Part shown: in pieces, positions 10,001 to 57,613 of the stretch
How positions within the stretch are numbered: the stretch's first letter is position 1
Layout of the letters: every line of letters begins with the position of its first letter
NCBI GenBank assembly: GCA_009602735.1
Contig: WELA01002286.1
Coordinates: 104,409-168,408 of the forward strand
Length of the DNA: 64,000 nucleotides
Direction of reading: 5' to 3'
DNA from: Mesotaenium endlicherianum
Taxonomy: Eukaryota
Position numbers and translations under genes: made by a program
The notes under the pieces: model-generated
The model's input: the letters and a program-made list of their open reading frames with translations, nothing else
The model's database searches: none
What the model was told of the DNA's origin: nothing

Positions 10001-11340
10001 CTAGTCTAGAAGGGCAGCAACGGCTGTTGCAGCGTCGCGACTAATACTCTCTAACAAAGTGCTATACTCGTCGGCTAAGCCCTGCACAGTGGCCTGGGAG
10101 TAGAGGTCGGTGTTGTAGACAAAGAGCCCCTCGAGCCCGCCTCCGGGCAAAACCTTCACCCCCAAGCCGATCTCCGACTTGGCAAACTCATACCCTGCCT
10201 GATCTGCGGGCTCCACCACCAGACCTGGAAGGCCCGACGTGCCGAGGCCGCCTTCATAGTCCACCTCGTCCAGCGTGAACCCTGTCTGGACCAGGGAGGC
10301 CCTGCTTGTGTCAGCGGCAGCAGAATCCGGGACCAGTGCCTCCACAACGCGGACAAATGGCACGTCCTGGTTGTCAAACGCCTCCAGCACACGCACCCTG
10401 ACTTGGGCCAGGAGGTCCACGAACGTGACACCTGGCGCAAACGTGGCAGCTGCCACCACTGTGTTCACAAACATGCCCAGCAGAGGCTCCAGCTGCGCCC
10501 GCACACGGCCTGCCACGTCAAACGCCACCAGGACCTTCTCCTGGTTGGTGCGGATGTGCAGCAGCGCCTGGTACGCCGCCAGCAGCACCATGAACAGCGT
10601 GCCGCCGTGCCTCTGGCCGACCCTGCGGAGGCCCTGAGCCACCTCTGCGCCGACCACAACCGTCACGCTGCCCCCCCGGTGGCCGAGCACGACTGGCCGC
10701 TCCCAGTCCGTCGCCAACTGCAGCGGAGCCGGGTTGAGGCCTACTACGTCTTGCCAGTACGCCAGCTGGCGATCCAAAAGCGCACCAGACACGAGCTGCC
10801 TGTGCCACAGAACGTAGTCGCCGTACTGCACCGCGAGCGGTGGCAGCCCATCCAGAGACTGCAACTTGTAGCAGTGCGCCAGCTCGGCGCAGAACGGCTC
10901 CGTGGACTCGCCGTCAAATGCCAAGTGGTGCATCGTGAGGAGAAGCACGTGCTCATTCGGTCCCAACGCTATCACGAGGCCTCTGATGGGCAGCGACTGC
11001 GGATCCGTCAGCTGGAAGGGCTTGTTTGCCTCCTCATTGGTCATCCTCGTCACCTCAGCGCCCTGCGTCTCCCCCTCCGGCAGCTCCGAAATGTCCACGA
11101 GCGGCAGCCTGAGTGGCACCTCACCTGCCGGCCGCACAACCTGCACCACATCCCCGCCTTCCTTCACACGGTAGAACATCCTGAGGGACTCGTGCCTGTC
11201 TACTATGAGGCTGACAGCTGTCTCCAGGCGCACCACGTCTAAATCCCCTCTGACCCTCCATGCATAGGGTATGTTTTCACTGCCAGGTGTCTGCAGCTCC
11301 TTGGTCCACGTGATCTTCTGGGGTCCACTCAAGGGCAGCT
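10001..11340 (-). other. NRPS terminal condensation domain
   Basis: MHHLAFDGES (10925-10930), QLAYW, FMVLLAAYQALL, GMFVNT, NQDVPF, FVYNTDLYS, then a stop. No TE or reductase domain follows. Confidence 0.9.
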
Positions 11341-14300
11341 CCCCGTTCTCAAGGCCCGACCGATCCATGGCTGTCAACGGGGGGCCCTGCTCGCCCACCT
11401 TGGAGCCGGCCAGCGCTGCGGCCACGCCTGCCACCGTGGAGTCCTTGAAGAAGACGCTCATGGGGAGGCTCTTGTGCAGCTGCTCCGTCAGCATGGCCAG
11501 CACGCGCACCGCCATCAGGCTGTTGCCGCCCATGCGGAAAAAGTCCGTGCTTGGAGTGACACCTGGCCCTGCGACAGTGCCCAAGACCTCTGCAAAGACT
11601 CCCGCCACCACCTCCTCCTGCTGGCTGAGGGGCCGAGCGGGGCCCTGCGTGGAGGCGCCTCCACCTGTCAAAAACGCTTCCCTCGTAGGCGGCGGCAGCT
11701 TCTTGCGGTCGATTTTACCCGACACGGTCTGCGGGAACTCGTCCATGACCACATACGCCGACGGAATCATGTAGGAGGGCAGCTTCGACACAGCCAGCTG
11801 CTGGACGGCGTGCGCGTCCAGGAGAGCCTCCACCCGGCCTGCACTCTCTGCCAGTGCCGGAGTGAAGTAGGCCACTAGGCACTGCTGCCCGTTGGCATCC
11901 GCCCTCACTGCCACAGCGGCCTGCCCGATCCCCGGCGCCGACGCCAGCACATTCTCGATCTCCCCGAGCTCGATGCGGTTGCCCCTCAGCTTCACCTGCC
12001 ACGCGGCGAAAGGAGAAGAATGATCTCACAGCCCAACAGTTCCTCGGTGCACACCTTGCTTGGCTGCATGTGCGCACACTACTCACACACACCGCTACCA
12101 CGAGCGCCGCCCGGCTGCATATACCAAACGCTGGCACCCAAAAACACATACTGACACACAAATAGACATAATCATAGCATGGAAACACGGAGAAAATGAT
12201 GACGAGCAACGTTTGTGTGTTTTGGGGTAGTTATATGCCAGGCAGTGGGCACTAGGTGGGAGCGAAGGAGCAAGCACAAGGGGCCATGCGGCTTACCTGC
12301 GAGTCCATGCGGCCGAGGAACTGCAGGTGGCCGCTGGGCAGCCAGCGGCAGAGGTCACCCGTGCGGTACATGCGCGCGTCGTGCGCCCCCGTGCTGTACG
12401 GATTGGGGACGAACTTCTCCGCCGTCAAATCGGGCCTGCCCAGGTAGCCCTCTGCCACCTGGATGCCGGCAATGCAGAGCTCTCCCGGGACGCCAACTGG
12501 CAGCAGTTCCGCATGGGGCCCCAGCACAAACGGATACACGTTGGCCAGGCCCTTCCCAATGGTGTCGAACACCTCATCCCCTGCTCCCCAGAGCATGGCC
12601 GTGGCGGTGACGGCTGTCTCCGTGGGGCCGTAGCCGTTGACGCACGTCACGCCCTCGTCAGTCCACTTGCGGATGAGGGACACGGGCACGGCCTCCGCGC
12701 CCAGATCAATGACCTTGAGGCCGGGCGTCTGGGCGGGCTGCAGCGTGGCCACCACCGTGGGCGTGGAAACAGCGTATGTCACCCGGTTGGTCCGCAGGAA
12801 CGCGCCCAGGTCCGTCAGCAGCTCCTCCTTGGAGCAGATTGCGAGCGGCACGCCGTACGCCAGTGCCAGGAACACCTCTTGGACGTGCACGTCGAAGACG
12901 CTGGGTGCCAGCTGGGCCACACAGGTGTCGGCATCCCAGGGCAGGAGGGCCTGGTATGCGCGCACGAGATTGACGACTGACCTGTGCGCCAGCTGCACGC
13001 CCTTGGGCTCGCCCGTGCTGCCGCTCGTGAACAGCACGTAGCAGATGCTCTCGGGCGTGGGCCTGTGCGCCTCCAGGTCCACGTTCCCATGTCCTGCTCC
13101 TGCAGCAGGCTCCTCCAGCGCATCGAGCGCCGTGACCTCCACGCCCTGCTCCGACGGCAGCCAGGCCAGGAGCTCCAAGTGGGCCGCTCCGGACAGCACC
13201 ATCGCCAGCCCCGCCTGCCGCACGATGCTCTCGGTACGCAGCCGCGGGTATGACGGCTCCATGGGCACGTAGCCGCCGCCCACCATCAGCACGCCCAGCA
13301 TGGCCGCCACCCACTCAACGCTGCGGTCAAACACGAGGCCCACCAGCTTGCTGGCCTGCCCCTTGGCCGCCACGTGCGCCGCCACACGCCGCGCCAGCCG
13401 GTGCACTTCCGAGAAGGTGGCGCTGCGGGCCCCATCCACGACGGCCACCCGCGACGCGTCCTTGGCCACCTGCGCCTCGAACAGCTCCACCAGCGTCGCG
13501 GCGGCCACCTCCCCTCCCTGCTCCTGCTCCTCCTCCCCGGCCCCGTCGCTGGCCAGGCCCGCAAACGTCCTCAGGACCAGCTCGCGTTCGTCCGGCTGCA
13601 TGACCGCCAGCTGGCTCAGCGGCGAGGCGGCGTCTCTGCAGATGGAGCGCAGAAGCTCCTGGAAGTGTGACGCCAGCCGCTCGGCGGTGGCGGGGGCGTA
13701 CAGGTCGGCGTTGTAAACGAGCTCCCCGCTCAGGCCGCCATCCTCGACCGTCTCAAGCCCCAAGTCCAGCTCGAACTTGGCGGAGACGCCGCCGCCCCCG
13801 TCCAGCGTGCCCAGCACCTCCACCCCAGCCAGCTGAAGGTCGCTTTCCAAGCTGCCCTTGCCCTCCTCCAATGAGAACATGGTCTGGAAGACGGGCGACC
13901 TGCTGGAGTCCCGCGTGGCCGACACCTGCCCCACGACCTTCTCAAAGGGCACGTCCTGGTGGTCCAGCGCCCCCAGCACGCGCGCCCTCACGTGCGCCAG
14001 GAGGTCCGCAAAGCTCGCCTCTCCCCTGCCCTCTGCAGCCCCCTGAGCCGCCAGGAGCTCGAAGTCAGCCACCGCCACGACCGTGTTTACGAACAAGCCC
14101 ACCACTGGCTCCAGCGCCGCCCTCACCCTGCCGGCAGTGGGGAAGCCCACAATGACGCGCTCCTGCCCCGTGTAGCGGTGCAGCAGCGCCTGGTACGCCG
14201 CCAGCAGCACCATGAACAGCGTGCTGCCGTAGCGCGCCGCCACCTGACGCAAGGCCTCCACGGCCGCCGCCTCCAGCGACACCCTAACGGTCGCGCCCCT

Positions 14301-17300
14301 GTGGCTCTCCACGCCCGGGCGCACGAAATCTGTGGCTAGCTGCAGTGGCTCGGGGTCCACGCCCAGGAGCTCCTTCCAGTAAGCCAGCTGGCCCTCCAGC
14401 ACCGCGCCCGACATGTAGCGACGCTGCCAGACGGCGTAGTCCACGTACTGCAGGGGCAGTGCGGGCAGCCCCTCCGCCGACCCGTCCTTCTCGTAGCAGT
14501 GGGTGAGCTCCTCAAAGAAGACGCCTGCGGACTCCCCGTCAAACGCAATGTGGTGCATCGTCAGCATCACTATGAAGCGGTCCCCGCCCTCCCGGACAAC
14601 GGCCCCCCGAATGGGCCAACTGTCGGGATCGTTGAGATCAAACGGCGCGGCCGCCTCCTCCTCCACCAGCGCCTCCACCTCCGCCGCCTTCCCCTCCTCC
14701 GGGCGGCCGGAGACGTCAAAAACGGCCAGCTTGAACGGCCGGCTGCCCGCGCCTGCAGAAGACCGCACAAACTGCAGGGGCACGCCCGCCCTGCTGCTGC
14801 CATAGGTCGTGCGCAGCACCTCGTGCCTCGCGACGACGGCCGCCAGCGCACGCTCCAGCCGCGCAACGTCCAGGGCCCCGCTTACGCGCCATGCGGCGGG
14901 CATATTGTAGTGGGAGGTGCCCCCGCCTTCGATCTGGTCCATGACCCACATGCGGTCCTGCGCGAAGCTCAGTGGCAAACCCCCGCCGTCGTCGGCCGCC
15001 ACGGCCGCCCTGTCCACCACGCCCAATGGGGGCTCCTCCTTCCCCGACGAGCGCAGGGCGGAGACAAGGCCGGCCACTGTTGAGTTGTGGAAGAAGTCGC
15101 CCACGGTGAGGCTCTTGCCCAGCCGCTCCCGGACCAGCGACACCACGCGGATGGCCATGAGGCTGTTGCCGCCCAGCCCGAAAAAGTCAGACCGCGCGCT
15201 GATGCCCTTGGCGCCGCCCACGGTCAGCACCTCCGCAAAAATGCCGGCCACCATCTCCTCCTGCACCGTCAGCGGCCGCGCGCTCCCCCCGCCGGCCGCA
15301 CCCGAGGCCGAATAGAACGCCTCCGCCGTGGGCGGCGGCAGCTTCTTGCGGTCGATCTTGCCTGACACCGTCTGCGGGAACTCATCCAGCACCACGTACG
15401 CGGTGGGCACCATGTAGCTTGTCAGCTTGGAGGCCGCCACCTGACGCACACCCTCCACGCTGAACGCCGCCCTGTCCTCAGGGCAAAGGTACGCCGTCAG
15501 GTGGTCCCACCCGGCCTCGTCCTTCTTCACCAGCACCACCGCCTGGCCCACGCCCGGCGCCTGGTCCAGCACGTTCTCTACCTCGCCCAGCTCGATGCGA
15601 TTCCCCCGCAGCTTCACCTGCAGACATGCCAGGGCAGATCAGATTCAGGCTCCGCCCACATACAAAGAGATAACGACCTCGTCCTGCACACCTGCAACCG
15701 TGTGAGGTGTTGGTGGCAGGTAACACTGTGCAGCAGTCATGCAGGTGCACTCCATAAGGAGAGGCCGGCGCCTGCTTTGGTCCCCTTCTCCCTTCACACA
15801 TGCATAGAGTGCGACAACAGCTGCGCTGTTGCCTTACAAGTGCAGCAGTCCCTTCGCCCCCCGGCAGACAACAGGACAGTGTAGGCATGCCACTCACTTG
15901 CGAGTCCATGCGGCCGAAAAACTGCAGGTGGCCGCTGGGCAGCCAGCGGCACAGGTCGCCCGTGCGGTACATGCGCGCGTCGTGCGGCCCCGTGCTGTAC
16001 AGATTGGGGACAAACTTTTCCGCTGTCAAATCGGGCCTGCCCAGGTAGCCCTTGGCCACCTGCACGCCCGCGATGCACAGCTCGCCCGGGACGCCGATGG
16101 GCAGCACCTCCCCGTGGTGCGCGCCCAGCACCAGCGGGTAAACCTGCGGCAGGCCGGTGCCGATGGTATCAAATACGTCGGCGCCCGCCTCCCAGAACAC
16201 GGCGGTGGCCGTCACCGCCGTCTCCGTGGGGCCGTAGCCGTTGACCACCGTGGTGCCCGCGTCTGTCCAGCGGCGGATGAGCGCCACGGGCACGGCCTCC
16301 GCGCCCAGGTCCAGCACCTTCAGGCAGCTGGCCTGGCTGGGCTGCAGCCCCGTGGCGAGCGTGGGCGACGTCACCAGGTACGTCACGCTGTGCTGCGACA
16401 GGAACGCGCCCAGGTCCGTGAGCAGCTCCTCCTTGGAGCAGACGGCCAGCGTGGAGCCGCACGCCAGCGCCAGCCACACCTCCTGCACGTGCACGTCAAA
16501 CACCGACGCCGCCAGCTGCGCCATGCAGGCCGTCGCGCCCGCCGGCAGCAGCCTCCGGTACGCCTGCACCAGGTTCACCACCGAGCGGTGCGCCAGCTCC
16601 ACGCCCTTGGGCTCGCCCGTGCTGCCGCTCGTGAACAGCACGTAGCAGCTGTCGTCGGGCGAGGGCTTGCACGCCGTCACCTGGCTCTCTTCTCGGGGCT
16701 CCGCCGGGGGCAGATCCGTGACATCCACCAGCACCAGGGGCACCGCCGCCGCAGCCATCCAGGCGAGGGCGTCCAGGTGCGCGGGCGTGGTAAGCACCAG
16801 GCTTAGCTGCGCCTGCTGCGACACGCTCTCCATGCGCCCTCGCGGGAACGTGGGCTCCATGGGCACGTAGCCGCCGCCCGCCATCATGATGCCCAGCATG
16901 GCCGCCACCCACTCCACGCCGCGGTCCATCACCAGCCCTACCAGGCGGCCGCCCTGGCCCTGGGCAAGAAGGAATGCCGCCACCTGGAGGGCGAGCGCAT
17001 GCACCTCCTGGTAGGTGGCACTGCGCTCCCCCGACAGCACAGCCACCTTCTGTGGGGACGCCGCCGCGGAGGCCAGGAACAAGTCCACCAGCGTCTCCTC
17101 GTAAGTCTCCACCTCCCTGCCCCCGCCGGAGAACTTGTGTAGCACCATGGCCTGCTCCTCCGCGCCCATCAGCGCCAGCTGGTGCAGGGGCAAGCCGGCT
17201 GCAGCCGCGGCCGCCCGCAGGAACTGCTGGTAGTGGCCAGCCAGCCGCTCCACTGTCTCCTGCGAGAACAGGTCCACGTTGTACTCGAGGACACCTGTCA

Positions 17301-20300
17301 GCGTGCCGTCGCCCTCCTTCTGCAGGCTGAGGTCGATCTCGAACTTGGCGGCACCCATCTCCTCCGCCAGGCTGCCCGTCACAGCGACACCTGGTAGCGT
17401 GATAGTGCTCGCTTCCGCCAGCGTGAACATCGTCTGGAAGACCGCGGACCGGCTGGGGTCGCGCACCGTCACGACGTCGGCCACCACCTTCTCGAAGGGC
17501 ACGTCCTGATGGTCCAGCGCCTCCAACACGCGCGCACGCGTCTGCTTCAGGAGCTCCAGGAACGTCACCTCGCCCTTCTCTCCAAAGTCGGCAACGGCCA
17601 CCACGGTGTTGACGAAGAGGCCCACAACGGAGTCCAGCTGCGCCAGAGTGCGCCCGCCCACAGGGATGCCCACCAGCACGCGCTCCTGCCCCGTGTAGCG
17701 GTGCAGCAGCGCCTGGTACGCCGCCAGCAGCACCATGAACAGCGTGCCGCCCGTCTGCTGCCCCAGCTGGCGCAGGTCCCTGGCGAGCGCGGCATCCACA
17801 GAAAAGTGCACGCTGGCGCCGCGGAAGCTCTGCTTGATCGGCCGCGGGAAGTCCAGTGCCAGCTGGAGCGGCTCGGGGTCGACGCCTATCAGGTCCTTCC
17901 AGTACACCAGCTGGCGGCTCAGAGCAGCCCCCGACATGTACTCCCTGTTCCACGCCGCAAAGTCTGCATACTGCAGCGCCACGGGCGGCAGCGTCTCCGC
18001 ACTGCCCCCCTGCTCATAGACGTGTGCGAGCTCGCGGAAGAAGACGGCGCTAGAGCCCTCGTCGAACGCGATGTGGTGCACCGTCAGCATCAGCACCCAG
18101 CTGCTGGCCCCGCATTTGGCCACACGCCCACGCATCAGCAGGCTGCTCGTGTCATCTATGTGGAAGGGCGTCTGCGCCTCCTCCAGGAACAGCCACTCCA
18201 CCTCCGCCTCCTGTTCCTCCGGGGCCAGAGGGGCCAGGTCCACGACAGGTAGACTGAAGAGGCTTGCCTTGTCCTCCTCCAGCACTACCTGCTCACACGC
18301 GCACACACACAGGCACACGCAGATGGCATCGTCGTCTTTAGGAGCAGCAGGAGGTGCTGTCTCAAGGAAGAGCAAGCCGTGAGTGCACAGGGGAGCAGGC
18401 CATGCCAGGCAAGGAAGGCTCTCTGAGTCGAGCTTCATTTCATGCCATCGCTGAAAGTAGGCCCCACCCGACAGGAAGGGGGTCACACACCTGGACAGGG
18501 GTCCCATCGTGGCTGGCGTAGAGCGTGCGCAGGGCCTCGTGGCGCGCGATGAGAGCGCGCACGGCCGACTCCAGGCGGGGCACGTCCAGCGCGCCCTCGA
18601 TGCGCCACGCAAACGGGATGTTGTAGTGGGCGCTGCCCCCGCCGCCCTCCAGCTGGTCCATGGCCCACATGCGCTCCTGCGCAAAGCTGAGCGGCAGCCT
18701 GCCCCCGTCCCCGGCCAGGAGGAGCGCCCTGTCCAGCGGGACGAGGGGCGGAGGCGCCGCACCGCCGCTGTCGGCACCGCCGCTGGCGTTGACGGCGGTC
18801 GCAATGCCGGCCACGGTGGAGTCGTGGAAGAAGGTGCCCACGGTGATGGCGCGCCCCACGCGCTCCTTCACCAGGCTGATCACCTTGATGGCCATCAGGC
18901 TGTTGCCGCCCATGGCAAAGAAGTCGCTATGCGGCCCGACGTCGGCGATAGCGTCACCGCCGCCTGCGAGGCCCAGCACCTCCGCAAACACGCCGGCCAC
19001 CACCTCCTCCTTCTGCGTGAGCGCGCGCTCGCCTGCCTTGACGGCGCCGCCCGACAGAAATGCCTCGGGCGGGGGCTGGGGCAGGTTCTTGCGGTCCACC
19101 TTCCCCGACACGGACTGCGGGAAGTGCTCCATGAGCATGTACGCGCTGGGCACCATGTACGTGGGCAGCCGCGAGGCCGCCACTTGGCGCACGGCCGCAA
19201 TGTCCACTGTGGATGCCTCGCCAACGGAGGGCCTCACATACGCCGCCAGAAAGAGCTGCTGCCCTTCGTCCTTCCTCACCATCACAACCGCCTGGCCCAC
19301 CCCCGGCGCCTGGCAGAGGGCGTTCTCGATCTCCCCCAGCTCTATGCGGTAGCCGCGCATCTTCACCTGCACCACGCACCAGGGCTCGGTTGTCAGCAAC
19401 ACTACCACATCCTCCAGGGGGCCCACCACTGACGGACTTGTCTCTGCTCACTCACTCTCACGTCACAGGGAAGGGCAGGGAGGCGGGGGTGGCGGGCACC
19501 GCACCTGAGAGTCGAGGCGGCCGAGGAACTCGATGTGACCGCTGGGCAGCCAGCGGCAGAGGTCGCCCGTGCGGTACATGCGCGCGTCGTGCGGGCCCTT
19601 GCTGTACGGGTTGGGCACAAACTGCTTAGCCGTCAGCTCCGGCTTGTTGAGATAGCCCTGCGCCACCTGCACACCGGCGATGCAGAGCTCACCAGGAACG
19701 CCCACCGGCAGCACTTCCTGGGTCTTGCGGCCCAGGATGAAGGCATACACCCCGGGCAGCGAGGCCCCGATGGTGTCGTACACCTGCGCCCCCGCCTCCC
19801 ACACCATGCGCGTGCACGTCACCGCCGTCTCCGTGGGCCCGTACGAGTTGACGACCAACACGCCCGCGCTGGTCCACCGTGCGATGAGGCTGACCGGCAC
19901 GGCCTCGCCGCCCATCTCCAGAAACTTCAGCCCCGGCGCCTGCGACGGCTGGATGGTGGCCACCACCGTGGGCGTGGCCTGGATGTACGTGGTGCGCGTG
20001 CGCTCCAAGAAGCCCGGGAGGTCCGTCAGCAGCTCCTCCTTGGAGCACACGGCCAGCGCGGCGCCGTGGCTGAAGGCCAGCCACACCTGGTGCACGTGCT
20101 GGTCGAACACGGCGGGCGACAGCTGGCCCACCACGCTGCCCTCGTCCAGCGGCAGCAGGTGCAGGTACGACTTGACCATGTTCACCACCGAGCGGTGCAC
20201 CAGCTCCACGCCCTTGGGCTCGCCCGTGCTGCCGCTCGTGAACAGCACGTAGCAGATGCTCTCGGGCGTGGGCCTGTGCGCCCGCAGCGCCGCTCGCTCG

Positions 20301-23300
20301 CCCTCGCTCACGGGCGGCATGTCGGCCACCACCGCCACCTCCACGCCCTTCTCCGCCGTGAGCCACCCGAGGCCCTCCGCGTGCTCTCCTGACGTCAGCA
20401 CCAGAGCCAGCTTGCCCTGGCTGGTGATGCTCTCCACCCTCAGGCGCGGGAACGACGGCTCCATGGGCACGTAGCCGCCGCCCGCCATCATGATGCCCAG
20501 CATGGCCGCCACCCACTCCACGCCGCGGTCCATCACCAGCCCCACCAGGTGGGGAGCATCCTGGCCGCCGCTGCCGCCTCTGCCTTTGCCAGCCCCGGCG
20601 GCGGCGCTGCGCCGAGACGCCACAAAGCAGGCCACGCGCTCGGCGCGCGCGTGCATCTCCGCGTACGACACCTGGCAGACGGCGGCATCCACGACGGCCG
20701 TGGCGTCGGGGCGCGCGCGCACCTGCGCCTCGAACATGTCCCACAGCGTCTCGGAGTGCACGGCCACGGGGCGGTACACGCCGGAGAACTTGTGCAGCAC
20801 CAGCGACTCCTCGTCCGCGCGCATGAGCGGGATCTCGTGCAGCGGGTCCTTGGCGTTACGCGGGATGCAGCGCAGCAGCTCCCGGTAGTGCCCCGCCAGC
20901 CGCCGCATGCTGGCCGCCGAGTACAGGTCCGTGTTGTACTCCACCACGCCCGCCAGGCTGCCGTCCGCCTGCCGGTCCAGCGACAGCTGCAGCTCAAACA
21001 TGGCCGCTGCCGACCCGAACGAGAGTGGCGTGACGTCCGCGCCCGCCACAAATTGGCTGTTGGAGCTAGAGATGGCGGCGCCCGCGCCCTCGTCCAGCGA
21101 GAACATCGTCTGGAAGACCGCGGACCGGCTGGGGTCGCGCACCGTCACGACGTCGGCCACCACCTTCTCAAAGGGCACATCCTGGTGGTCCAGCGCCTCC
21201 AGCACGCGCGCGCGCGCCTGCTGCACCAGCTTCACGAACGACAGGTGGCCGCCGTCACCGCCCTCAAAGTCGGCCACCGCCACGACCGTGTTGACGAAGA
21301 AGCCCACCAGGCTCTCCAGCTGAGGGTGCACGCGTCCGGCCACGGGGATGCCCACAATGACGCGCTCCTGCCCCGTGTAGCGGTGCAGCAGCGCCTGGTA
21401 CGCCGCCAGCAGCACCATGAACAGCGTACCGCCCGTCTGCTGCCCCAGCGCCTGCAGCGCCGCCACAGCGTCCGCGTCCACAGAGAGGCTCACGCTGGCG
21501 CCGTTGTGCGTTTGCTTGGCGGGGCGCACAAAGTCGGTGGCCAGCTGCAGCGGGTCCGGGTTTGGGCCGATGAGCTTGCGCCAGTACGCCAGCTGCTCCT
21601 CCAGGCGCGCACCCGACACGAAGGTGCGGTGCCAGATGGCAAAGTCTGCGTACTGCACGGCCATCTGCGCCAGTCCCTCGGCCGTCGAGAACTCGTAGCA
21701 GTGTGCCAGCTCGCGGAAGAATACGCTGTTGGACACGCCGTCGAACGCGATGTGATGCACCGTCAGCAAGAACACGCACGACGCTGCTGTCGCGTTCTCC
21801 TCCTCCTTCAAGTCCTCCTCCACCAGGACGCCCCGCAGCGGCAGTCCCGCCGGATCGTTGAGGTCGAAGGGCGCCAGCGCCTCCTTCCTGGCCAGACGCC
21901 GCACGGCCCCGTCCTCCTCGCCTTCCGCGCTGGCACCGCCCCCGTCAGCCTCCGACAGACGGAGGGTGCGGATCTTGACCTCCACGTCCTCGGCCCGGCG
22001 CACGATCTGCACAGGCGCGCCCTCCACCGTTGCAAAGTAGGTGCGCAGGATCTCGTGGCGGCCCAATAGGGCCGTAAGCGCTTGCTCCAGGCGCCCCAAG
22101 TCAAGGTGCCCGCGAATGCGCCAGGCAAAGGAGATGTTGTAGTGCGCGCTTCCACCCTCCAGCTGGTCCATGGCCCACATGCGCTCCTGCGCAAAGCTGA
22201 GCGGCAGCTTCCCGTCCTTAAACTGCGCGCGCGCTACGGCCGTGAGCGCGGGCCCCTTGCTGATGGCGCGGCCCGCGTGGATCTGCGAGGCCACGCCCGC
22301 CACGGTGGAGTTCTGGAAGAAGCCGGCCATGGAGATGCTCTTGCCCAGCCGCTCGCTGATCAGCGCCAGCACGCGGATGGCCATCAGGCTGTTGCCGCCC
22401 AGCCCGAAGAAGTTGGCGTGCGGCCCAACGCGCACGCTGGCCTGCAGGCCCAGCACCTCCGCAAAGATGCCGGCCACCACCTCCTCCACCTGCGTCATCG
22501 TGCGCTCGTCGCCCAGCGCCAGGCCGCTTGTCAAAAAGGCGTCGCTGGTGGGCTCCGGCAGGCGGCGCCGGTCCACCTTGCCCGAGACGGAGTGCGGAAA
22601 CTCCTTGAGGACCACGTACGCGGCGGGCACCATGTACGCCGGCAGGCGCGACGTGACGGCCGTGCGCACCTCCCCAATGTCCACCTCCACGCCCGAGTGC
22701 GGCCGCAGGTACGCCGCCAGGTACTGCTGCTGCTGCGCGCTGTCCTTGCGCAGCATGGCCACGGCCAGGCTCACGCCAGGCGCCTTGCAGAGCGCGTTCT
22801 CAATCTCGCCCAGCTCGATGCGGTTCCCCCGCAGCTTCACCTGCACACGCAGCAGCCGCCACCGCCACCAGCAGGACAAGGGTGAGGGCGGGGGCCGAGG
22901 ATGCGAACAAGGGCAGGGTATATTGCTGGGGGGGCAAAGCATGCAGCTGCCCGGCAGCAGCGGCTTCACCATTGTATGTAGCGGCAACAACAGGGTGGGG
23001 CTGGGGGGCAGGCCGGCTGACCTGCGTGTCGATGCGCCCGAGGATGTGGATGGAGCCGTCGGGCAGCCAGCGACAGAGATCGCCCGTGCGGTACATGCGC
23101 GCGTCGTGCGGGCCCTTGCTGTACGGGTTGGGCACAAACACCTTGGCATTCAGGTCAGCCCTCCCCAGGTAGCCCTCAGCCACCTGCACGCCAGCCAGGC
23201 AGAGCTCCCCCGGCACGCCGATGGGCAGCAGCTCCTGGTGCGCACCCAGCACGTACGCATACACGTGCGCCAGGGGCCCACCGATGGTGTCCGTGGGCTC

Positions 23301-26300
23301 CGACCCCGCTGCCCACACAGTGCGCGTGACCGTCACCGCGCACTCCGTGGGACCGTACGAGTTGACAACTGTCACGCCTGCTCGCGTCCACCTGGCAATG
23401 AGGCCCACAGGCACGGCCTCACCGCCCATCTCCAGCACCTTGAGGGACGGCGCCAGAGACGGCTCCAGCAGGTCGGCCAGCGTGGGCGTGGCCTGGATGT
23501 AGCACACGTCGTGGCGCGACAGGAACCCCGCCAGGTTCGTCAGCAGCTCCTCCTTGGAGCACACGGCCAGCGCGGCACCGTGACTGAAGGCCAGCCACAC
23601 CTGGTGCACGTGCTGGTCGAACACGGCGGGTGATAGCTGGCCCACCACGCTACCCTCGTCCAGCGGCAGCAGGTGCAGGTACGACATGACCATGTTCACC
23701 ACCGAGCGGTGCGCCAGCTCCACGCCCTTGGGCTCGCCCGTGCTGCCGCTCGTGAACAGCACGTAGCAGATGTCGTCCACAGACGGCCCGCCGTGCGCAG
23801 CCACCTGCGCCGCGTCGCCTGGCGCGGGCGCCAGCGTGTCCACATCCAGGACGCTCACGCCCGCCCCGCCCATCCAGTCCAGGCCGGCCAGGTGCTTGGC
23901 GGTGGTGAGCACAAGCGCCAGCCGTGCCTGGCTGGCAATGCTCTGCATGCGCACCACCGGATAAGACGGCTCCATGGGCACGTAGCCGCCCCCCGCCATC
24001 ATGATGCCCAGCATGGCCGCCACCCACTCCACGCCGCGGTCCATCACCAGCCCCACCAGCAGGCGCGTGCCCCGCCCCCCTTCTCCCTCCTGCTGCAGCT
24101 GCTGCTGCTGCTGTTGGCGGTGGTGCAGGACGGCGGCAGCGACGGCCGTCGCCTTCTCGTGGAGCTCGCGATAGGTCACGCGGCCAACGGCGTCGTCAAT
24201 GACGGCCACGGCCTCGGGCGCCGCGCGCAGCCGCGCCTCAAAGAGGTTTACCAGAGTCTCGGGGTACGCCTGGAACGGCACCTGCGCGCCGCTGAAGCGC
24301 TCCAGGACCAGGGCACGCTCCGCCTCGTCCGTGAAGGGCAGCGCCTGCAGGGGCACGCCCATGTCGGCGTCGCGGGCGGCCGCAAACGCCAGCAGCTGGC
24401 GGTAGTGGCCCGCCATGCGCTCCACAGAGGCCTGCGAGTACAGGTCTGTGTTGAACTCCAGGCAGCCGCCCACACTGCCGTCGTCGCGCTTGCTGAGCAT
24501 CAGGTTGAGCTCAAACATGGCGGCGCCGGTGAACGTGGGGATGGGCGTCACGGCCTCCATGCCCGGCAGCGCCAGCGAGGCGCCCTCGCCCAGCGTGAAG
24601 CCCGCCTGGAAGACGGGCGAGCGGCTGGGGTCGCGCACCGTCACCAGCTTGCCCACCACCTTCTCAAAGGGCACGTCCTGGTTGTCTAGTGCCTCCAGCA
24701 CGCGCGCGCGCGTCTGCTCCAGCAGCTGCAGGAAGGTCAGGCCCTTCTCGCCCGGCGCCGCGTCCGCAAACTCGGCGACGGTGACCACCGTGTTGACGAA
24801 GAGGCCCACGAGCGGCTCGATCTGCGCACGGATGCGCCCGGCCACGGGGATGCCCACCAGCACGCGCTCCTGCCCCGTGTAGCGGTGCAGCAGCGCCTGG
24901 TACGCCGCCAGCAGCACCATGAACAGCGTGCCGCCCGTCTGCTGCCCTAGCGCCTGCAAAGCCGCCACCTGGGGGGGGTCTAGATGCAGCGGCACGTAGC
25001 TCCCGCTGTGCGTCTCGCGCGACGCACGCACGTAGTCCGTCACCAGCTGCAGCGGCTCGGGGTCCTGGCCAATGAGGCCCTCCCAGTAGCCCAGCTGCTG
25101 GCTCAGCAGGCCGCCGCCGCTGCCCACGTAGGCGCGGTGCCACACGGCGTAGTCCACGTACTGGATGCTCATGCGTGGCAGGCCCGCCAGGTCGCCGTGC
25201 TCGTACAGGTGCGCCAGCTCGTGGAACAGCGTGCCCTCTGCGCCCTCGTCAAAGACGCTGTGGTGCAGGGTGAGCAGCACCACGTGCTCGCGCGCACCCG
25301 CGCGGATAACGGCGCCGCGCACCAGCAGGCTGCGCACGTTGCCGAGGTTGAAGGGCAGCTGCGCCTCCTGCCGCACCAGACGCTGGATCTGCAGCTCCTT
25401 CTCGTCAACGTCGCCATCGCCGTCCAGCTCGAAGACGGGCAGGTTCATGGTGGAGTCCTCCACGGGGCGCACCGTCTGCACGGGCACGCCGTCCTCCGCC
25501 TTGTACACAGTGCGCAGGATCTCGTGGCGCTCCAGCAGCAGGTTCAGCGCGCGCTCCAGCCGCGCCACATGCAGGGGCCCGCGCACGCGCCACGCGTACG
25601 GCAGGTTGTACTGCGAGCTGCTGCCGTCCAGCTGATCCATGACCCACATGCGCTCCTGCGCGAAGCTGAGCGGCAGGAAGCCCTGCCGGTACTGCGCGCG
25701 GTCGATGGCCACCAGCGGCGCGCCCGCGGCCTTGACGGAGTCGCGCCCCGCCAGCGCGCTCGCCACGCCTGCCACCGACGACTGCTTGAAGAACTTGCCC
25801 ACCGTAAGCGTCTTGCCCAGCCGCTCGCGCAGCAGCGCTATCACTTTCACTGCCATCAGGCTGTTGCCGCCCATCTCGAAGAACCCAGCCCCCGCGGGGA
25901 TGTCCGCCGCCGCAGCCGTCCCCAGCACCTCCGCAAACACGCCCGCCACCGCCTCCTCCTCTGGAGTCCTTGCCCTCCTGTCCCCCTCCTCCTCCCCCTG
26001 CTCGCCTCCCTCAAAGCCGCCCCCGGGGATGTGGAACGCCTCGGGCGGCGGGGGTGGCAGCTTCTTGCGGTCCGTCTTGCCGGAGACGGTCTTGGGGAAC
26101 TCGTCCAGCACCACGTAGGCAGCGGGCACCATGTAGGCAGCCAGGCGCTTGACGGCCGTCTCGCGCACCAGGCGCAGGTCCAGCGGCGTGGCGGGGTCCA
26201 CGGGGCTCACGTACGCCACCAGGCTCTGCTGGAACACGGTGCTGATGGCCTTGGCCACGCCGGGCGCCTGGCACAGCACGTTCTCGATCTCGCCCAGCTC

Positions 26301-29300
26301 GATGCGGTTCCCCCGCAGCTTCACCTGCCCACGCAGCAGCCGCCACCGCCACCAGGCCGGGATGCTCAGTCACCTACCCTTTTGCTACTTTCGTTTCACA
26401 CCCTCCCTGCTTCCCCCCAGTTTCTCTCCTGGGGAGCAGAGTGGAAGCTTTATCTCCCTGAGGTAGCAGAGATATGCATGCATGCGCACCACCTGATTGC
26501 TCAAGGGGTGCCAGGCTTGCAACCGACCCACTGACTGACGCACGGCACTACCCTGTGGAGGACATCCCAAACAACACTAGCGTCGCGTCCCGCCACTGGG
26601 GAGGAGGAGGGGCGAAGGGGGATGGGCAGAGAGAGCGCACCTGGAAGTCGATGCGACCGAGGAAGTGGATCTGGCCGTCCGGCAACCAGCGGCAGAGATC
26701 GCCCGTACGGTACATGCGCGTGTCCAGGCTGCCGTTGGCGCCGCTGCCGCCCATGGCGCTGAGGCCGCTGCTGTAGGGGTTCATGGCAAACTGCTTGGCC
26801 GTGGCCTCCGGCCGGTTGAGGTACCCCTGCGACACCTGCACGCCCGTCAGGCACAGCTCGCCCGGCACGCCGATGGGCAATGCCTCCAGGTGGGGCCCCA
26901 GCACGTATACGTTGACACCTGGCAGGCTGCGGCCGATGGTATCCACCACGCGGTCCCCCCGCTTCCAGACCTTGTTGAGAGCAGTGACGGCGCACTCCGT
27001 GGGACCGTAGCCGTTGACGACTGTCACGCCCTCGGCAATCCACTTGGTGATGAGGGGCACGGGCACAGCCTCCCCGCCAAATTCCAGGATCTTGAGGGTG
27101 GGCGCCTGGCTGGGCTCCAGCAGCGCAACGACTGTGGCCGTGACCTGGATGTACGTCACGCGGTGGCGCATGATGAAGGCCCCCAGGTCCGTCAGCAGCT
27201 CCTCCTTGGAGCACACGGCCAGCGCGGCGCCGTGCCCGAGCGCCAGCCACAGCTGCTGCACGTGCAGGTCGAACACGGACGGCGCTACCTGGCCTATGAC
27301 GTCGGCCTCCGTCAGCGGAAGCTGCGCCAGGTAGGACTTGACGATGTTCACCACCGAGCGGTGCGTCAGCCGCACGCCCTTGGGCTCGCCCGTGCTGCCG
27401 CTCGTGAACAGCACGTAGCAGGCGCTGTCCAGCTCGGGCGCGCACGCGGGGACCGCGTCGAGCGCCCCCGGCGAGACGTCCGGCAGCGCCCTGAGGTCCA
27501 GGAGCGCCACGCCCTTCTCCTCGCGCTGCCACGCCAGGTCGTCCGCGTGCTCCGTGGTGGTGAGCACAAGCGTGAGCCCCGTCTGGCGGATGATGCTCTC
27601 CATGCGCAGCCGCGGATACGACGGCTCCATGGGCACGTAGCCGCCGCCCGCCATCATGATGCCCAGCATGGCCGCCACCCACTCGATGCCACGGTCCACG
27701 ATGAGCCCCACCAGCTGGCGCCCTGCCCCCGCCAGCCCCCCCTGCGCGCGCCCGTGCTCGGCCACGAGGGCGGCCACGCGGAGCGCCAGGTCCTGTAGCG
27801 CCATGTACGTGATGGTGCGCTCGCCGTCCACCACGGCCACGTTGCTGGGCGTGCGCGCGCACTGCGCCGCAAATAGGTCCACCAGCGTCTCGCGGTGGGG
27901 CGCGTAGGGGCGTGCGGCACCCGAGAAGGTCTGCAGCACCGTGTGCATTTCCTCTAAGCCCATCACGCGCAGCTCGTGCAGCGGCGCGCTGGCGCTCTTG
28001 CCCGCGGACGCCGCCAGCTCCTGAAAATGCGCCGCCAAGCGCTCCGCCGACTCGCGCAGGTACAGGTCCGGGCGGTACTCCAGCACGCCGCTCACGCTGC
28101 CATCTGCGCTCTCGCTCAGAGCCAGCGCCACCTCCGCACCCCCCCAGCCGTCCCGGGCATCGTTGTCGCCGCCTGCCAGCTGGCTGACGACGCGGCTGCC
28201 TTTGACGAGCCGCGCGCTGCTGAGCACAAACGCCGCCTGAAAGAGGGGCGCGCGGGCCGGGTCGGGCGCGGATACCAGGGCGCGCACAAGCTCGCCCAGC
28301 GGCAGGTCGCGGTGCTGCACCGCGTCCATAAGCTGCTCCCTCATCTGCTGCACCAGCTCGATGAACGTCATGGCCTTGCCCTCCTCGAAGGTGCCGACTG
28401 CCACCAGCACGCCACCGTTTGCCTGGCTGGCAACGGCGCCTGGCGCCTTCGAGGCAGCCCCTATAGGGAGCCCTACAGACAAGCGCTCCATCCCGGTGTA
28501 GCGCTGGAGGAGGGCGGCAAAGGCAGCCAGCAGGACGGTGAAGAGGGTGGCGCCCTGGCGGTGCGCCAGGCCATCCAGGGCATGGACGACGTCGGCGCTG
28601 ACCTGGACGCTGATCTGGGCCTTGTGGTGGGTCAGCACGTTGGGGCGCGGCAGGTCCGCCACCAGCTGCAGGGGCTCGGGGTCGCCCTCGATGAGCCCCG
28701 TCCAGAAGGCCAGCTGCTCCGGCGCCGAGAACTTCCTCCTGCTGGCCGCTTTCAGGATCTGCCAGTGGGGGGGAGAGCACAGTTGGTGGCTCGCTTCGTC
28801 ACAGGTTCCACCATGTGCGGAGAAAGGGACAGTTGTTGCACCCTTGATCAAGCAGCATTCCCAATAGCGTACGACCATACGTTTCACTGACAACAAATAC
28901 TTGATGCTCACAACCATTGAGGGAAAGTGAAATTGAGTCACACGGGAAGCACTGCCCAAGCGCGTGCCCATGATCCGATTCAGAAAGAGAGAGAGAGGGA
29001 GAGAGAGAGTGTGACCTGGGCAATCCAAGAGGGGAAGACGGCGTGCGCGTCGCCGTCCAGGCCCAGGGAGACAGCCAGTCCCTGCAGGCCCTGCGCCAGG
29101 CCTTCGTGCGTCACCTCCACCGCGCTCCCCTCCTCGCTGTCGTACTTGAGATAGGCCAGGCTGCGCAAGGAGGCCTGCGGAGCGGAGTCGCGCCCATTCT
29201 GGTGCCCGTTCATGTCGCCATTCTCCGCATGCTTCCCGCTTGGCGGCTCGCTGGGAGGGACATCGATGAGTCGAGGAGTGGCAGCGCTGGTCTTGCATTG

Positions 29301-31885
29301 GCTGCCACCGCGACTGGGCAGGCCGCCACTAGTAGACTCCGTCGGCTGCACAAGCCAGCAGCGAGGATCAGCGGCTGTAATGAGTGCTATCTGCAGCCCA
29401 GTCTTGATGATGACAACACACCCCCCCGGCTGCTGTGACATCACTCGGTTGTCCTTCCCTCTCTCCATCTCCAGGTTGAGCGCACCCCCCCGCAGACTGA
29501 CTCCTCATCCACACTCTGCGACTGCCATGCAGTGGGTCAAGGGAGGGGCAGGCTGCAGCACCCAGTGCCCTCCCTCCCAGCTGCTGCAAAGCCCATGAGG
29601 AGAAGGGAAAGGGGATGACTCATGAGCATGAGCAGCAACGGCAGCACTGGATCGAGAAATCAGGAGCGCAGGCTGGGGGAGCACTAGCACCTGTCGGGGC
29701 GAAGGGGAGGGGGAGGGGGAGCTGGGGGAGGAGGAGGAGGCGAAGCTGTTGGGCAGCACATGCAGCTGCTGCGGGGCGCCTCCTCCCTCCCGCGAGCTCA
29801 GCGCCTCCACAAACTCAAAGTACTCCGCAGTTGTCAGCCCGGCAGTCACGCCGCTTGCCGCCACCACTGCGGTCAGATGCTCCGCCAGCAGATCGGACAG
29901 CTCCGGGAGCTCGACCGGCACGGGGACCACACCTGGCAGCACCATAGCAGGGCGCCACAGCACTTGCCACCCGGCCAGTCAGCCCATCGTCGCACCCACC
30001 ATCTGCAGGGCGCCCGGTGCCAAGAGAGGCCTGGGAGGGGGCTCAGATGGAGGCGCTGGTTGGCAGTAGACCTGAGCTCTAATCAGTAGCAGCAAGGGAG
30101 CTTGACACGCCCCCAGACAGAGAGAGGGACACCTGTCATCCCGCAAGAGAGGAAGCACAGGGACGGCCAGGCAGGCCCTTCCTGGACAACCGGCCACAAG
30201 TGTGACCTGGAGGACGAGAACAATGGCATAGAGAAGAAGGGAGGGCGCGGACGAGGAACACACTGGGTGGCAGACATGGGTAAACCCCCCCCCACCCCCC
30301 CCCACCNNNNNNNNNNNNNNNNNNNNNNNNNNNNNNNNNNNNNNNNNNNNNNNNNNNNNNNNNNNNNNNNNNNNNNNNNNNNNNNNNNNNNNNNNNNNNN
30401 NNNNNNNNNNNNNNNNNNNNNNNNNNNNNNNNNNNNNNNNNNNNNNNNNNNNNNNNNNNNNNNNNNNNNNNNNNNNNNNNNNNNNNNNNNNNNNNNNNNN
30501 NNNNNNNNNNNNNNNNNNNNNNNNNNNNNNNNNNNNNNNNNNNNNNNNNNNNNNNNNNNNNNNNNNNNNNNNNNNNNNNNNNNNNNNNNNNNNNNNNNNN
30601 NNNNNNNNNNNNNNNNNNNNNNNNNNNNNNNNNNNNNNNNNNNNNNNNNNNNNNNNNNNNNNNNNNNNNNNNNNNNNNNNNNNNNNNNNNNNNNNNNNNN
30701 NNNNNNNNNNNNNNNNNNNNNNNNNNNNNNNNNNNNNNNNNNNNNNNNNNNNNNNNNNNNNNNNNNNNNNNNNNNNNNNNNNNNNNNNNNNNNNNNNNNN
30801 NNNNNNNNNNNNNNNNNNNNNNNNNNNNNNNNNNNNNNNNNNNNNNNNNNNNNNNNNNNNNNNNNACCCCCCCCCCGTTTTCCAGAAAAGAATTAAAAGA
30901 AAACAAAATGACAGCAATCGGCCCGCTGCTACCGAAGCTAGTGAAGCACTTGCGCAGCAGCTTGCAGACAGGCAAAGAAGCCCAGCTGCTGCAGCGGTCA
31001 GGCGATCCCGCCTGGCTCAAAATGCTCGAGGCAAAGAGCCCCTAGTCAGATCTTGGGCGTTTTAACTCACAGTATCTAGACTGCGCCCGTTACGTGATGT
31101 GTGTATACATTCACATTTCCATAGGGCAGGGGGCGGGGGTGACATCCCTTAATTATGCTTCTGACGACCCGGGTGCACAGCCAGCTGAGAAGGTACCAAA
31201 AATAGGTTCACGGTCCCACCCTTAGGCCCCCTGCCTTGCGTGCGACTGTGTCTGCTCTGTCCCTTACCTGTCAGGTAACACAGCGGGTATCTGAGTGAAA
31301 AGGAAGGGAAAGGGGGCACTTTTAGTACGCATCTCATTGACGTCAGACAACTCCCAGCTAGCTACTCCAGCCCAGGGTCAAAGAATACCGGCGCTAGGCT
31401 GAAGATCAGAAATGGCCTTCTTCTTATTCACACTGACCTGCATATAGACATGCGAGAAATGTGCATGCCAGCTGTGGTCCAGGAGGAAATGCGAGGAGGA
31501 CACGCGTCTCTCTTCTGATCTGCAAGACGGCAGTCAGCTGTTGCTCCACTGCCAGGACCTTCTGGCGGAGATCCTTGTACGTGCAGGTAACCTCATCGCT
31601 ATGTCCATTCACAACCGGAATGCCAACTGCACCGGGCGTCCTTCGGGATATCGACAACCAACGGAGGGCGACGTCATCGGGGTAATTGATGGCAGCTTCT
31701 TCTAAGAAAGAGATTAGAGTCTGAGGGGAGTGCTTTGATATTCCCCCACTGGTGCCATGACTCTGCAGCCAGATTGGACTGTTACTGAAAGATCGAGGAC
31801 TACTAGCAAATCCATGACTAATCCGTCTTATTAATGCACCATACGGTGGAGCTCTTTCTATATTCAGAGGGTAAGCAGGTGCCAT
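10001..31885 (-). CDS. Five-module NRPS, ~6,119 aa, 10 exons: 31885-31438, 29932-29691, 29345-29016, 28758-26641, 26324-23022, 22840-19505, 19366-18491, 18288-15898, 15617-12297, 11995-10001
   Basis: Five A domains (YVLFTSGSTGEPKG, N[G/S]YGPTE, RMYRTGDL, GRxDxQVK, SGKxDR), five T domains (FFxxGGNSL) and five full C domains (HHxxFD[G/E]) plus a half C. All nine junctions are GT-AG and phase-compatible, with no internal stops in the spliced frame. Exons 4-10 are high confidence; the exon 2/3 boundaries are inferred. Confidence 0.93.
11410..14980 (-). other. NRPS module 5: C-A5-T5
   Basis: C MHHIAFDGE (14550-14555), A5 FDVHVQE, T5 FFRMGGNSL (Ser 11519-11521). Boundaries approximate. Confidence 0.92.
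15055..18705 (-). other. NRPS module 4: C-A4-T4
   Basis: C VHHIAFDEG (18073-18078; this C has a private intron 18490-18289), A4 FDVHVQE, T4 FFGLGGNSL (Ser 15162-15164). Boundaries approximate. Confidence 0.92.
18790..22210 (-). other. NRPS module 3: C-A3-T3
   Basis: C VHHIAFDGV (21752-21757), A3 FDQHVHQ, T3 FFAMGGNSL (Ser 18899-18901). Boundaries approximate. Confidence 0.92.
22285..25680 (-). other. NRPS module 2: C-A2-T2
   Basis: C LHHSVFDEG (25260-25265), A2 FDQHVHQ, T2 FFGLGGNSL (Ser 22388-22390). Boundaries approximate. Confidence 0.92.
25750..28758 (-). other. NRPS module 1: C-terminal half of a C domain + A1 + T1
   Basis: Starts at EQLAFW...PLQLVADLPRP with no HHxxxD lobe. A1 has FDLHVQQ. 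T1 is FFEMGGNSL with the Ser codon at 25860-25862. Boundaries approximate. Confidence 0.88.
28985..29009. repeat. (GA)n microsatellite in NRPS intron 3
   Basis: agagagagagagggagagagagag read directly. Confidence 0.75.
29016..31730 (-). other. NRPS N-terminal FAAL (fatty acyl-AMP ligase)-like domain, truncated and degenerate (exons 1-3)
   Basis: TLISFLEEAAINYPDDVALRWL...TYKDL...VLLAFPPGPQLACTFLACLYA|GVVPVP...HLTAVVAASGVTAGLTT...LAYLKYDSEEGSAVEVTHEGL...FPSW is colinear with the N-terminal half of FAALs. The TSGSTGxPKG loop is lost and the domain stops at the SW(LP) position. Confidence 0.75.
30307..30865. other. Assembly gap (559 N) flanked by poly-C runs, within predicted NRPS intron 1
   Basis: Run of N with C-homopolymers on both sides. 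Confidence 0.99.
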
Positions 31886-32846
31886 AGGAATAGTACTGGC
31901 CTCACTATCCGCCCGTCAATTACAACACAGATAACGATAGGATCAACATTGACGGCATCTTTCACATGGTGCTTCTACATGCAGTCTTTCGCAATCCTTC
32001 CCGCTGACCTCATCAGCACTGTTCTCATCGGCGTTGCTAAGTGCTTGGAAGCAACTTACTCCTTTGTTTTGAGGGAACATACAGCATGCTACATTACCCA
32101 GCAGGGGGTCCTGCTTTTCGGAATCAACACCTGCGCACCTTTTTTCACACGAGGGTGCCGCGCATCTTTAATGTCGTCGACCTTCACTCCTGCATGTCGC
32201 CGGTCAGCACCACAAGTCGGCCACAACGCATGTTGAACATGAGCTCAGCGGCTCACAGACTCAGTATAAAGCACGCGCCGCTCCTGATCTGGCTTCTCCA
32301 ATCAGGCTGCTTTGTGCTTATTCGACGCATTCGACGTTGACTTGTATAGCCATGCTGTCACTCTACCGCCAAAATCTCTTGCAAAATCTCTGACTTAAAT
32401 CGTCGATTCCTGCATCGTTCGCAGAAGTCTTAGCTTTGTAGTCTGCAAGTGCTCCTTGTATCCAGGCCTCAGTCTGTACTAGCAGCCCTAAGCTTCAAAC
32501 GTTAACAATCATTGACAATACGGCGCTGGACCAGTCATTAGCAGTAACCTATTGTCATCTTTCTCTTTATGAACCGCTACGAGTTGCCACCAGTGCTTAA
32601 TTCCTGCTTGATTCATCCACTGACAGCTTGCACTGACCGTTTTTTACGAGAGCATATATGTGATACCACCCGTTGGATGCAATATCGGTACATTTAAATG
32701 CCTAACAAGCTTGACAGGTCATGTTGGACGCCCCCCATAAAAACACATAACAAGATCCAAGTATGGATAGATCTGGGCTGCCCCACCAGCTCTCCTCCAC
32801 CGACATCACCGAGCAACCCATCAACTCTGGAGTTTGAACTTCGGAT

Positions 32847-56480: not shown

Positions 56481-57613
56481 AGACACTAATTAGTGGGCTC
56501 CCATTCATCGTCACTGTAGATGAAGAAAGAGGAGTAAGTTTGTATCATCACAGCATATCTGTTCTCTTACCTTACCGCGTGGGTACGAAGAGTTAAGCGT
56601 GATAAGAATAACGAATGAATGTGTGTGCAACGTGAATTTAAGTAATTCGTGTATGTGCTGGTCTCTCTCTCTTTTTGAGTAGTGAGCTCTTTCCAACTGA
56701 GCTCAAGGTGAGCCTGGCTGGCCCATCTGTTACTTAACTGCAACCTTCCGTCACATTCCTCTCCAACTTAAATGGAGACAAGACCTCCTGTCACCTTCCG
56801 ATGTTAACTAAAATGACAGTTAAGGAGGTCTCCCAGCCACCCGAAGGTGAAAGCGTTTCAACGCCCCTTTGGCATTGGTTAAATGGTTGTCAAACTCCCA
56901 AGTATCCCTTGAGGCATTGTAACCCTTCCAGCGGACCAGTTATTTTATGACATACTTACAAGATTGACGAACAGAGCGAGCTTCGAGAATCTCATCCACC
57001 TCATATTCTGCAAGGTCACCATCTCGGACAGCGGGGACCGGTCCCGGTTGGATAGGTGACCGACTTGTGAATAGTGTGTCACCCTTAATGTACAATTCTA
57101 GAAGGGAGACATTAAAAACAGGGTGACACTTGTATTCCGCTGACATGTTTGGTTTGTAAGCATTCTGACCGACACGACGTACCATCGAGTATGGATCGAC
57201 CCAAATTAGACCCAGCTTTTTCTTGACCACAGTAGGCAGGTACAGGTGCTGAGAATGCAGTTTGACCAAATTGCCCTTGGAAAATGTCACCTCTCGACGG
57301 TCTTGATTAGCATATGTTTGTTGATTTTTTTGTGCTTTGTGCAAGATTTGTTGCAGTCCTAATAGGGTGTTAGCAAACTCCTGAGTTAACATGAGGGATA
57401 CCGGGTTGTCAATCCCCTCAGGATGGGTGAAAGACTCCCCTAGCACATTTGAAGAAGACTTGGGCACCCTTCCCAGATTGAGTTCAATAGGAGTCTTGCC
57501 TGTTGACGCATGCACCGCACTTTTGATCGCAAATTGAATTTGGGGCAGCAGTTCATCCCAATTATCTTGTTCTTCTTATTAGTATAAGCTCTCAGCACCT
57601 CCTACATGACTCG

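Follow-up and report, generated by a model that had tools for sequence, protein, structure and literature searches.

A FAAL fragment joined to half a condensation domain opens a transcribed five-module NRPS gene of Mesotaenium endlicherianum

Results

The window analysed, a 64,000-nucleotide stretch of M. endlicherianum DNA, carries on its minus strand a GC-rich NRPS gene (31885-10001, Table 1) whose ten exons, separated by nine introns with GT-AG borders throughout, splice into one open frame of 6,119 residues (653 kDa). The encoded synthetase comprises, in linear order, a leader, a FAAL fragment, half a condensation (C) domain, A1-T1, four C-A-T modules and a terminal C, with exons 1-4 at 31885-31438, 29932-29691, 29345-29016 and 28758-26641. 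The gene start given by the first-pass annotation has to be moved about 50 codons upstream, to an in-frame ATG at 31885. Among the first 50 residues of the leader so gained, one is acidic, four are basic and ten are Ser or Thr, a composition resembling that of a transit peptide by the criteria we assume, and the leader is possibly an organelle transit peptide. RNA coverage reaches to about 32290, beyond this ATG, and the transcribed upstream region 31886-32293 contains 13 further ATGs, which leaves two readings, a transcript whose true 5' end is shorter or control of translation by upstream ORFs. The gene is flanked by remains of Ty3/Gypsy-type retroelements, whose pol regions carry protease, RT, RNase H, integrase and SH3, and the open frame at 507-1406 is possibly a retroelement gag fragment.

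Table 1. Coordinates of features in the 64,000-nucleotide window
Feature	Position	Strand	Basis or remark
Open frame, 299 codons	507-1406	-	no Pfam match
C2-A2-T2-C3-A3-T3-C4-A4-T4-C5-A5-T5-terminal C	10001..25691	-	stop at 10001-10003
A1-T1, interrupted by intron 4 (26640-26325)	25743..27897	-	A3 loop, A10 Lys and carrier Ser intact
C-lobe-only condensation domain, C*-type, without HHxxxD	27913..28758	-	Pfam, structure alignment, predicted fold
Intron 3, 257 nt, phase 0, fusion point	28759..29015	-	contigs, RNA contig ends, depth
Exon 3: low-complexity insertion, strands around the destroyed ATP loop, next helix, end at the SW Trp	29016..29345	-	
Intron 2, 345 nt	29346..29690	-	RNA joint
Exon 2: FAAL-like segment, then Ser/Pro-rich insertion	29691..29932	-	RNA, profile, alignment
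Intron 1, 1505 nt, contains a 559-N gap	29933..31437	-	RNA joint
Exon 1, FAAL subdomain-A part	31438..31735	-	NCBIfam and PDB best matches
Leader with start codon (31885)	31736..31885	-	~50 residues, Ser/Pro/Arg-rich, one acidic residue
Ty3/Gypsy-type pol region	37236-40536	-	broken by stops or frame changes
Ty3/Gypsy-type pol region	51503-54413	+	broken by stops or frame changes
Ty3/Gypsy-type pol region	56940-59092	-	broken by stops or frame changes

The joints at the start of the gene were followed in RNA, using reads from two raw runs (X21 and X24) and contigs from a third (X5). Removal of intron 1 is seen in 18 reads (1 in X21, 17 in X24) and one X5 contig, and that of intron 2 in 17 reads (2 and 15, respectively) and one X5 contig; the 559-N assembly gap (30307-30865) sits within intron 1 and is skipped by the RNA joining exons 1 and 2. 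Intron 3, at which the FAAL fragment meets the half C domain, is marked as spliced because X5 RNA contigs stop at 28761 and restart at about 29016, i.e. at both splice sites, no loose read end is listed at the start of exon 4, and the implied RNA depth in the intron is about 1.4 versus 19-30 in the exons. A CT repeat (28973-29017) was masked in read mapping and one joint row is absent there; with the joint itself thus masked, we strongly infer that exon 3 is spliced to exon 4. At the intron-4 donor 35 reads have loose ends, with a tail that matches the beginnings of exons 5 and 6 equally well, and introns 5-9 are predictions from GT-AG sites and frame, without read support.

An artefact, in which sequence missing from the assembly created the fusion, or a minor isoform, in which the protein would start at an ATG within intron 3, could be argued from the masked joint, from the absence of stops and presence of Met codons in intron 3 in the exon-4 frame, and from one X5 RNA contig that retains the intron (depth 5 versus 22-26). 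Against this, intron 3 is spanned with 0 differences by a 2,617-nt DNA contig, possibly derived from the source sample, and by a 314-nt contig of a separate study; the assembly therefore lacks nothing there, and an assembly deletion is rejected as the cause of the fusion. The open frame is of a kind that arises by chance (9% of shuffles, 3/8 introns) and was likewise rejected as meaningful, while the RNA contigs end at both splice sites and cover exons 1-3 as deeply as exon 4. This explanation is largely refuted, and we rate it as very improbable. The union of a FAAL N-terminal half with half a C domain across a 257-nt intron, as described in the first-pass annotation, is accordingly real and transcribed.

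The FAAL motifs quoted in that annotation are present in exons 1-3, and in a profile comparison on the spliced exons, of the kind it had proposed, residues 92-197 are closer to FAALs (43.4 bits, profile built from 11 bacterial sequences) than to NRPS A domains (14.9 bits, 112 sequences). In a local BLAST search the seven best matches are all FAAL-bearing proteins. Exon 1 on its own ranks a PvdL-type N-terminus (E 7e-5) and FAAL PRK12476 (E 0.002) first and second in NCBIfam, with an acetoacetate-CoA ligase model next (E 0.0026), the profiles used for the spliced piece being those of FAAL and A domains only, and its best PDB matches are 7r7g/7r7f/7r7e and 3kxw; taken alone it would thus weakly favour FAAL-type models and structures, the CoA-ligase model being close behind. 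A search for exon-1 homologues yielded 0 of 229 candidates, which is weak evidence. The fragment as a whole runs colinear with FAAL residues ~1-210, its end falling on the SW-motif Trp. The exon-3 piece alone matches nothing in database searches and scores 0.7 bits, and its assignment to FAAL therefore rests on colinearity.

Alignment agrees with the earlier observation that the ATP (A3) loop is replaced, in that it reads DSEEGSA (~29144-29124) and is three residues shorter; of the invariant residues, 4/15 survive in the ATP-loop region versus 9/18 elsewhere in the stub. This degenerate region (29180-29016) may resemble that of DIP2-type FAAL-like domains; the ATP loop of DIP2 and Cps1 is probably also degenerate. 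The FAAL-specific helix and insertion, as described in PMC8460268, are absent, as are the remaining N-terminal domain and the C-terminal domain. With acidic residues in place of the ATP loop and about two thirds of the domain gone, the stub cannot adenylate. Hydrophobic columns are kept at 50/62 positions versus 16/76 for polar columns, a pattern that alignment bias partly builds in, and the stub looks to be folded but catalytically dead; such a conservation pattern does not separate a passenger from a functional domain.

Exon 4 opens in the middle of a C domain without the HHxxxD lobe, again as noted earlier, matching only positions 193-452 of 456 in Pfam Condensation and aligning to the C-A structure of Txo1 (6oyf) from its residue 191 onwards. 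This half C directly precedes A1 and scores 164 bits on a bacterial C profile. The fold predicted for exon 4 from a 64-row alignment (pLDDT 90, pTM 0.91) is a C-lobe plus A core that matches C-A didomain structures (6oyf, TM 0.81), although the prediction largely reflects its homologues; a single-sequence fold reached pLDDT 36. In the alignment-based fold the low-confidence loops (101-114 and 185-204) include a motif decayed in the half C copy only. Identity of the half C to C2-C5 is 38-40%, that of C2-C5 among themselves 55-63%, that of A1 to A2-A5 60-62% and that of A2-A5 mutually 58-68%. The half C end branch is 1.0-1.5 long versus 0.24-0.45, and 35 of 64 highly conserved bacterial C positions are kept versus 46-50 in C2-C5. 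As the half C has diverged much further than the neighbouring A1, the truncation is old; the N-lobe would so have been lost long ago and the remaining C-lobe would still be constrained.

Judged by its predicted structure the half C is of the C*/ADA type, being half size, consisting of the C-lobe only and lacking HHxxxDG, and is thus of a kind already known and not novel. PMC7884236 describes C* as the C-lobe-only domain that precedes the first A in ACV synthetases; its deletion abolishes the activity of module 1 and leaves modules 2-3 functional. In PpzA the partial C is called a relic and thought to stabilise the A domain (PMC6926027). The half C shares with ACV synthetase C*, the ADA of Lys2-type reductases and the PpzA partial C its C-lobe-only make-up, lack of HHxxxDG and position before the first A, as far as these two sources describe them. 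Unlike them, it follows a FAAL fragment, shows far less decay and groups with the C domains of its own family, in a tree without ACVS rows. The view that the half C is a simple leftover is weakened by this comparison, a domain of the same type being required for module 1 in ACV synthetase (PMC7884236).

The remainder of the synthetase is a five-module NRPS with complete catalytic motifs throughout. The A3 loop and A10 Lys are present in 5/5 A domains, the carrier Ser in 5/5 T domains and HHxxxD in 5/5 full C domains (C2-C6), with HHxxxDG intact in the terminal C. C2 (25691-24291) and C4 (18703-17128) carry HHxxxDE, not HHxxxDG. By its motifs A1-T1 is the first catalytically complete unit; it is intact, as the proposal that it now initiates synthesis implied, and initiation itself is likely. 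The terminal C (11347-10001) is full-length and ends the synthetase, with neither thioesterase nor reductase. Pocket residues are common to A2 and A3, and likewise to A4 and A5, and one pocket position, in the numbering we presume to apply, is acidic in all five A domains. The introns with donors at 26640, 23021, 19504, 15897 and 12296 are phase-0 and lie at the same A8-hinge point in A1-A5, which indicates that the modules were duplicated after intron gain, in a eukaryote.

Among the best 120 of 2,946 matches to the A1-A5 profile, the proteins closest to the synthetase are zygnematophyte single-module C*-A-T-C NRPSs. Four eukaryotic-type relatives drawn from this set (P0150, P0173, P0186 and P0239) show 46-48% identity versus 29-39% for the rest. 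P0150 is labelled jgi/Mesen1 ME000153S01465, 'Mesen1' being read by us as Mesotaenium endlicherianum; P0186 is one of three copies in Spirogloea muscicola, the others, P0241 and P0242, being members of its 90%-identity cluster and equal in length. A decayed C-lobe, not preceded by any FAAL, forms the N-terminus of P0150, P0173 and P0186, and in two of these three the first seven residues are identical; P0239 is without that part. The synthetase resembles these enzymes in its A domains (42-49% identity), N-terminal half C and terminal C, but has five modules and a FAAL fragment where they have one module and no FAAL; their C* domains are much more decayed (1-20 bits per segment; 23-25% identity to the half C) and their predicted substrate pocket is different.

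In a quick A-domain tree that includes 10 bacterial A domains, from which the algal group stands apart, A1-A5 form a clade (SH-aLRT 96) sister to the single-module zygnematophyte NRPSs (100). A second C-lobe tree, with 8/20 bacterial C rows dropped, including long branches, and with no ACVS or Lys2 rows, splits all algal domains from 12 bacterial ones (98/97) and leaves the half C in a polytomy. AU tests reject none of three half C placements (p 0.21, 0.36, 0.19), the first being a clade of half C and C*. As the sister NRPSs start at a half C without FAAL, such a start is a family trait, and capture of 5' exons is a live rival to deletion as the origin of the fusion.

No orthologue or other relative with an intact FAAL-ACP-C start was found in protein searches that spanned up to 2,000-3,530 residues, a range below the expected orthologue length. 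Among possible bacterial donors, 10 genome loci gave best full-length matches of only 31-36% identity; no viral donor was found in viral contigs, and the ESM Atlas returned only generic AMP-binding and Condensation clusters. The donor search in metagenomes yielded 1/166 stretches. A short contig (L001, 1-1361) carries an apparently intron-containing NRPS C-A junction, 38% identical to A1, and represents another eukaryotic NRPS lineage.

Discussion

The domain order at the start of the synthetase invites comparison with bacterial FAAL-ACP-C lipopeptide starters (PvdL type, NCBIfam PRK05691), in which an N-terminal FAAL-type sequence is likewise followed by C and by A-T modules. In 12/12 fetched bacterial FAAL-NRPS proteins the FAAL is succeeded by a gap of ACP size (~110 residues), then by a complete C and then by an A, and the stretch from the SW Trp to the position corresponding to the exon-4 start measures 649-689 residues. 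The ACP and a complete C between FAAL and first A are absent from the synthetase, which lacks these ~650-690 residues; its ATP loop is destroyed, its gene has nine introns and it ends in a terminal C, not a thioesterase. Without ATP loop and ACP, lipidation in cis is not possible. The shared FAAL-ACP-C-A order makes deletion the natural origin, and the start of the synthetase would be most simply accounted for as what an ancient deletion left of a FAAL-ACP-C starter, an account that is the likeliest but unproven. The deletion put forward in the first-pass annotation thus gains the domain order and the uniform gap, without an intact relative to match, and the lipopeptide-type ancestor stays conditional given sister NRPSs that start at the half C without FAAL.

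Traces of the event were sought within the locus. Neither introns 1-3 nor any other part of the window contain lost FAAL, A or C pieces, and around the breakpoint there are only short chance repeats. Intron 3 as a decayed C N-lobe was rejected at both the protein level, where 70-259 of 300 shuffles score equally, and the DNA level, where it does no better than other introns.

Exon capture is a less probable but real rival, given the half-C start of the sisters and the join in a phase-0 intron. Here there would have been no FAAL-ACP-C ancestor: a C*-A-T-C gene, its module duplicated to five, would have captured three FAAL exons through intron 3, and these would supply promoter, start codon and perhaps a transit peptide. 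The sister position of A1-A5 to the single-module NRPSs, the half-C start of P0150, P0173 and P0186, the position of the join exactly in an intron and the AU test that does not reject half C plus C* (p 0.21) all fit such a course, and plants and algae have FAALs of their own (PMC8460268 and PMC9342972). It would, however, require that the captured piece happened by chance to be the domain that normally precedes C in NRPS starters; the half C is nearer to its own C2-C5 than to the sister C* domains; and no donor FAAL was found, the whole genome lying outside the search. We consider capture unlikely, while still a serious candidate.

The stub might instead, whatever its origin, now be a selected pseudo-domain that regulates the synthetase, packing on the exposed C-lobe face in place of the N-lobe or binding lipid, acyl-ACP or a partner protein. 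The two breakpoints coincide with structural borders, that of FAAL subdomain A and that of the C-lobe, the hydrophobic pattern and an identity of 24-31% to bacterial FAALs are kept despite the long half C branch, and second-position GC is 0.44-0.45 in the FAAL-like segments versus 0.67 in the insertion. DIP2 continues to depend on a FAAL-like domain even though that domain is catalytically degenerate (PMC9342972). Yet an insertion of ~87 residues, low in complexity and rich in Ser, Pro and Gly, splits the stub, and the sister enzymes manage without one, so that we think this role distinctly doubtful. The DIP2/Cps1 domains, compared by their description in the same paper, are like the stub eukaryotic FAAL derivatives, one of them without adenylation motifs, but they are complete domains arranged in tandem, are reported from opisthokonts only and are not joined to an NRPS.

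Deletion is, in our view, on balance the probable reading, with FAAL remnant and C-lobe as the scar of a lost FAAL-ACP-C start and A1-T1 initiating a lipid-free pentapeptide. Some 650-690 codons would have been lost long ago, the join now lying within intron 3. The C-lobe would have been retained as a brace for A1, by analogy with C* in ACV synthetase, and the FAAL stub carried along as a folded but dead passenger, its exons kept mainly for the gene start and perhaps a targeting peptide. A1, so braced, would load the first amino acid onto T1, C2-C5 would lengthen the chain and the terminal C, in a synthetase with no thioesterase, would release or cyclise the product.

FAAL-NRPS fusions are described in Chlorophyta, Oomycota and Chytridiomycota in PMC12820801, in five supplementary files of which five algal names gave no match. 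A 2015 survey (PMC4661987) lists NRPSs in 7/32 algae, none in its one streptophyte, Klebsormidium, and a preprint (bioRxiv 10.64898/2026.02.10.704744) places a UV-induced Mesotaenium gene, unnamed in its available text, in a FAAL clade. In the literature searched, outside which most subscription journals lie, we found no published dead FAAL stub on a C* or half C and no published zygnematophyte NRPS, single- or multimodular; the combination of such a stub with a half C and the expressed five-module NRPS in this lineage appear to be undescribed.

If the deletion reading is true, the gene documents how an NRPS in nature changed from starting a lipopeptide to starting a plain peptide. A half C would then have arisen again, next to an entire family of algal NRPSs that begin with C*, and the case bears on the function and the origin of C* domains. 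Of greater consequence than the FAAL stub may be the host gene. At 653 kDa, against a maximum of 490 kDa in the 2015 survey, the synthetase is expressed and bacterial-like, with modules duplicated after intron gain, and offers a testable target for a pentapeptide in a lineage close to land plants.
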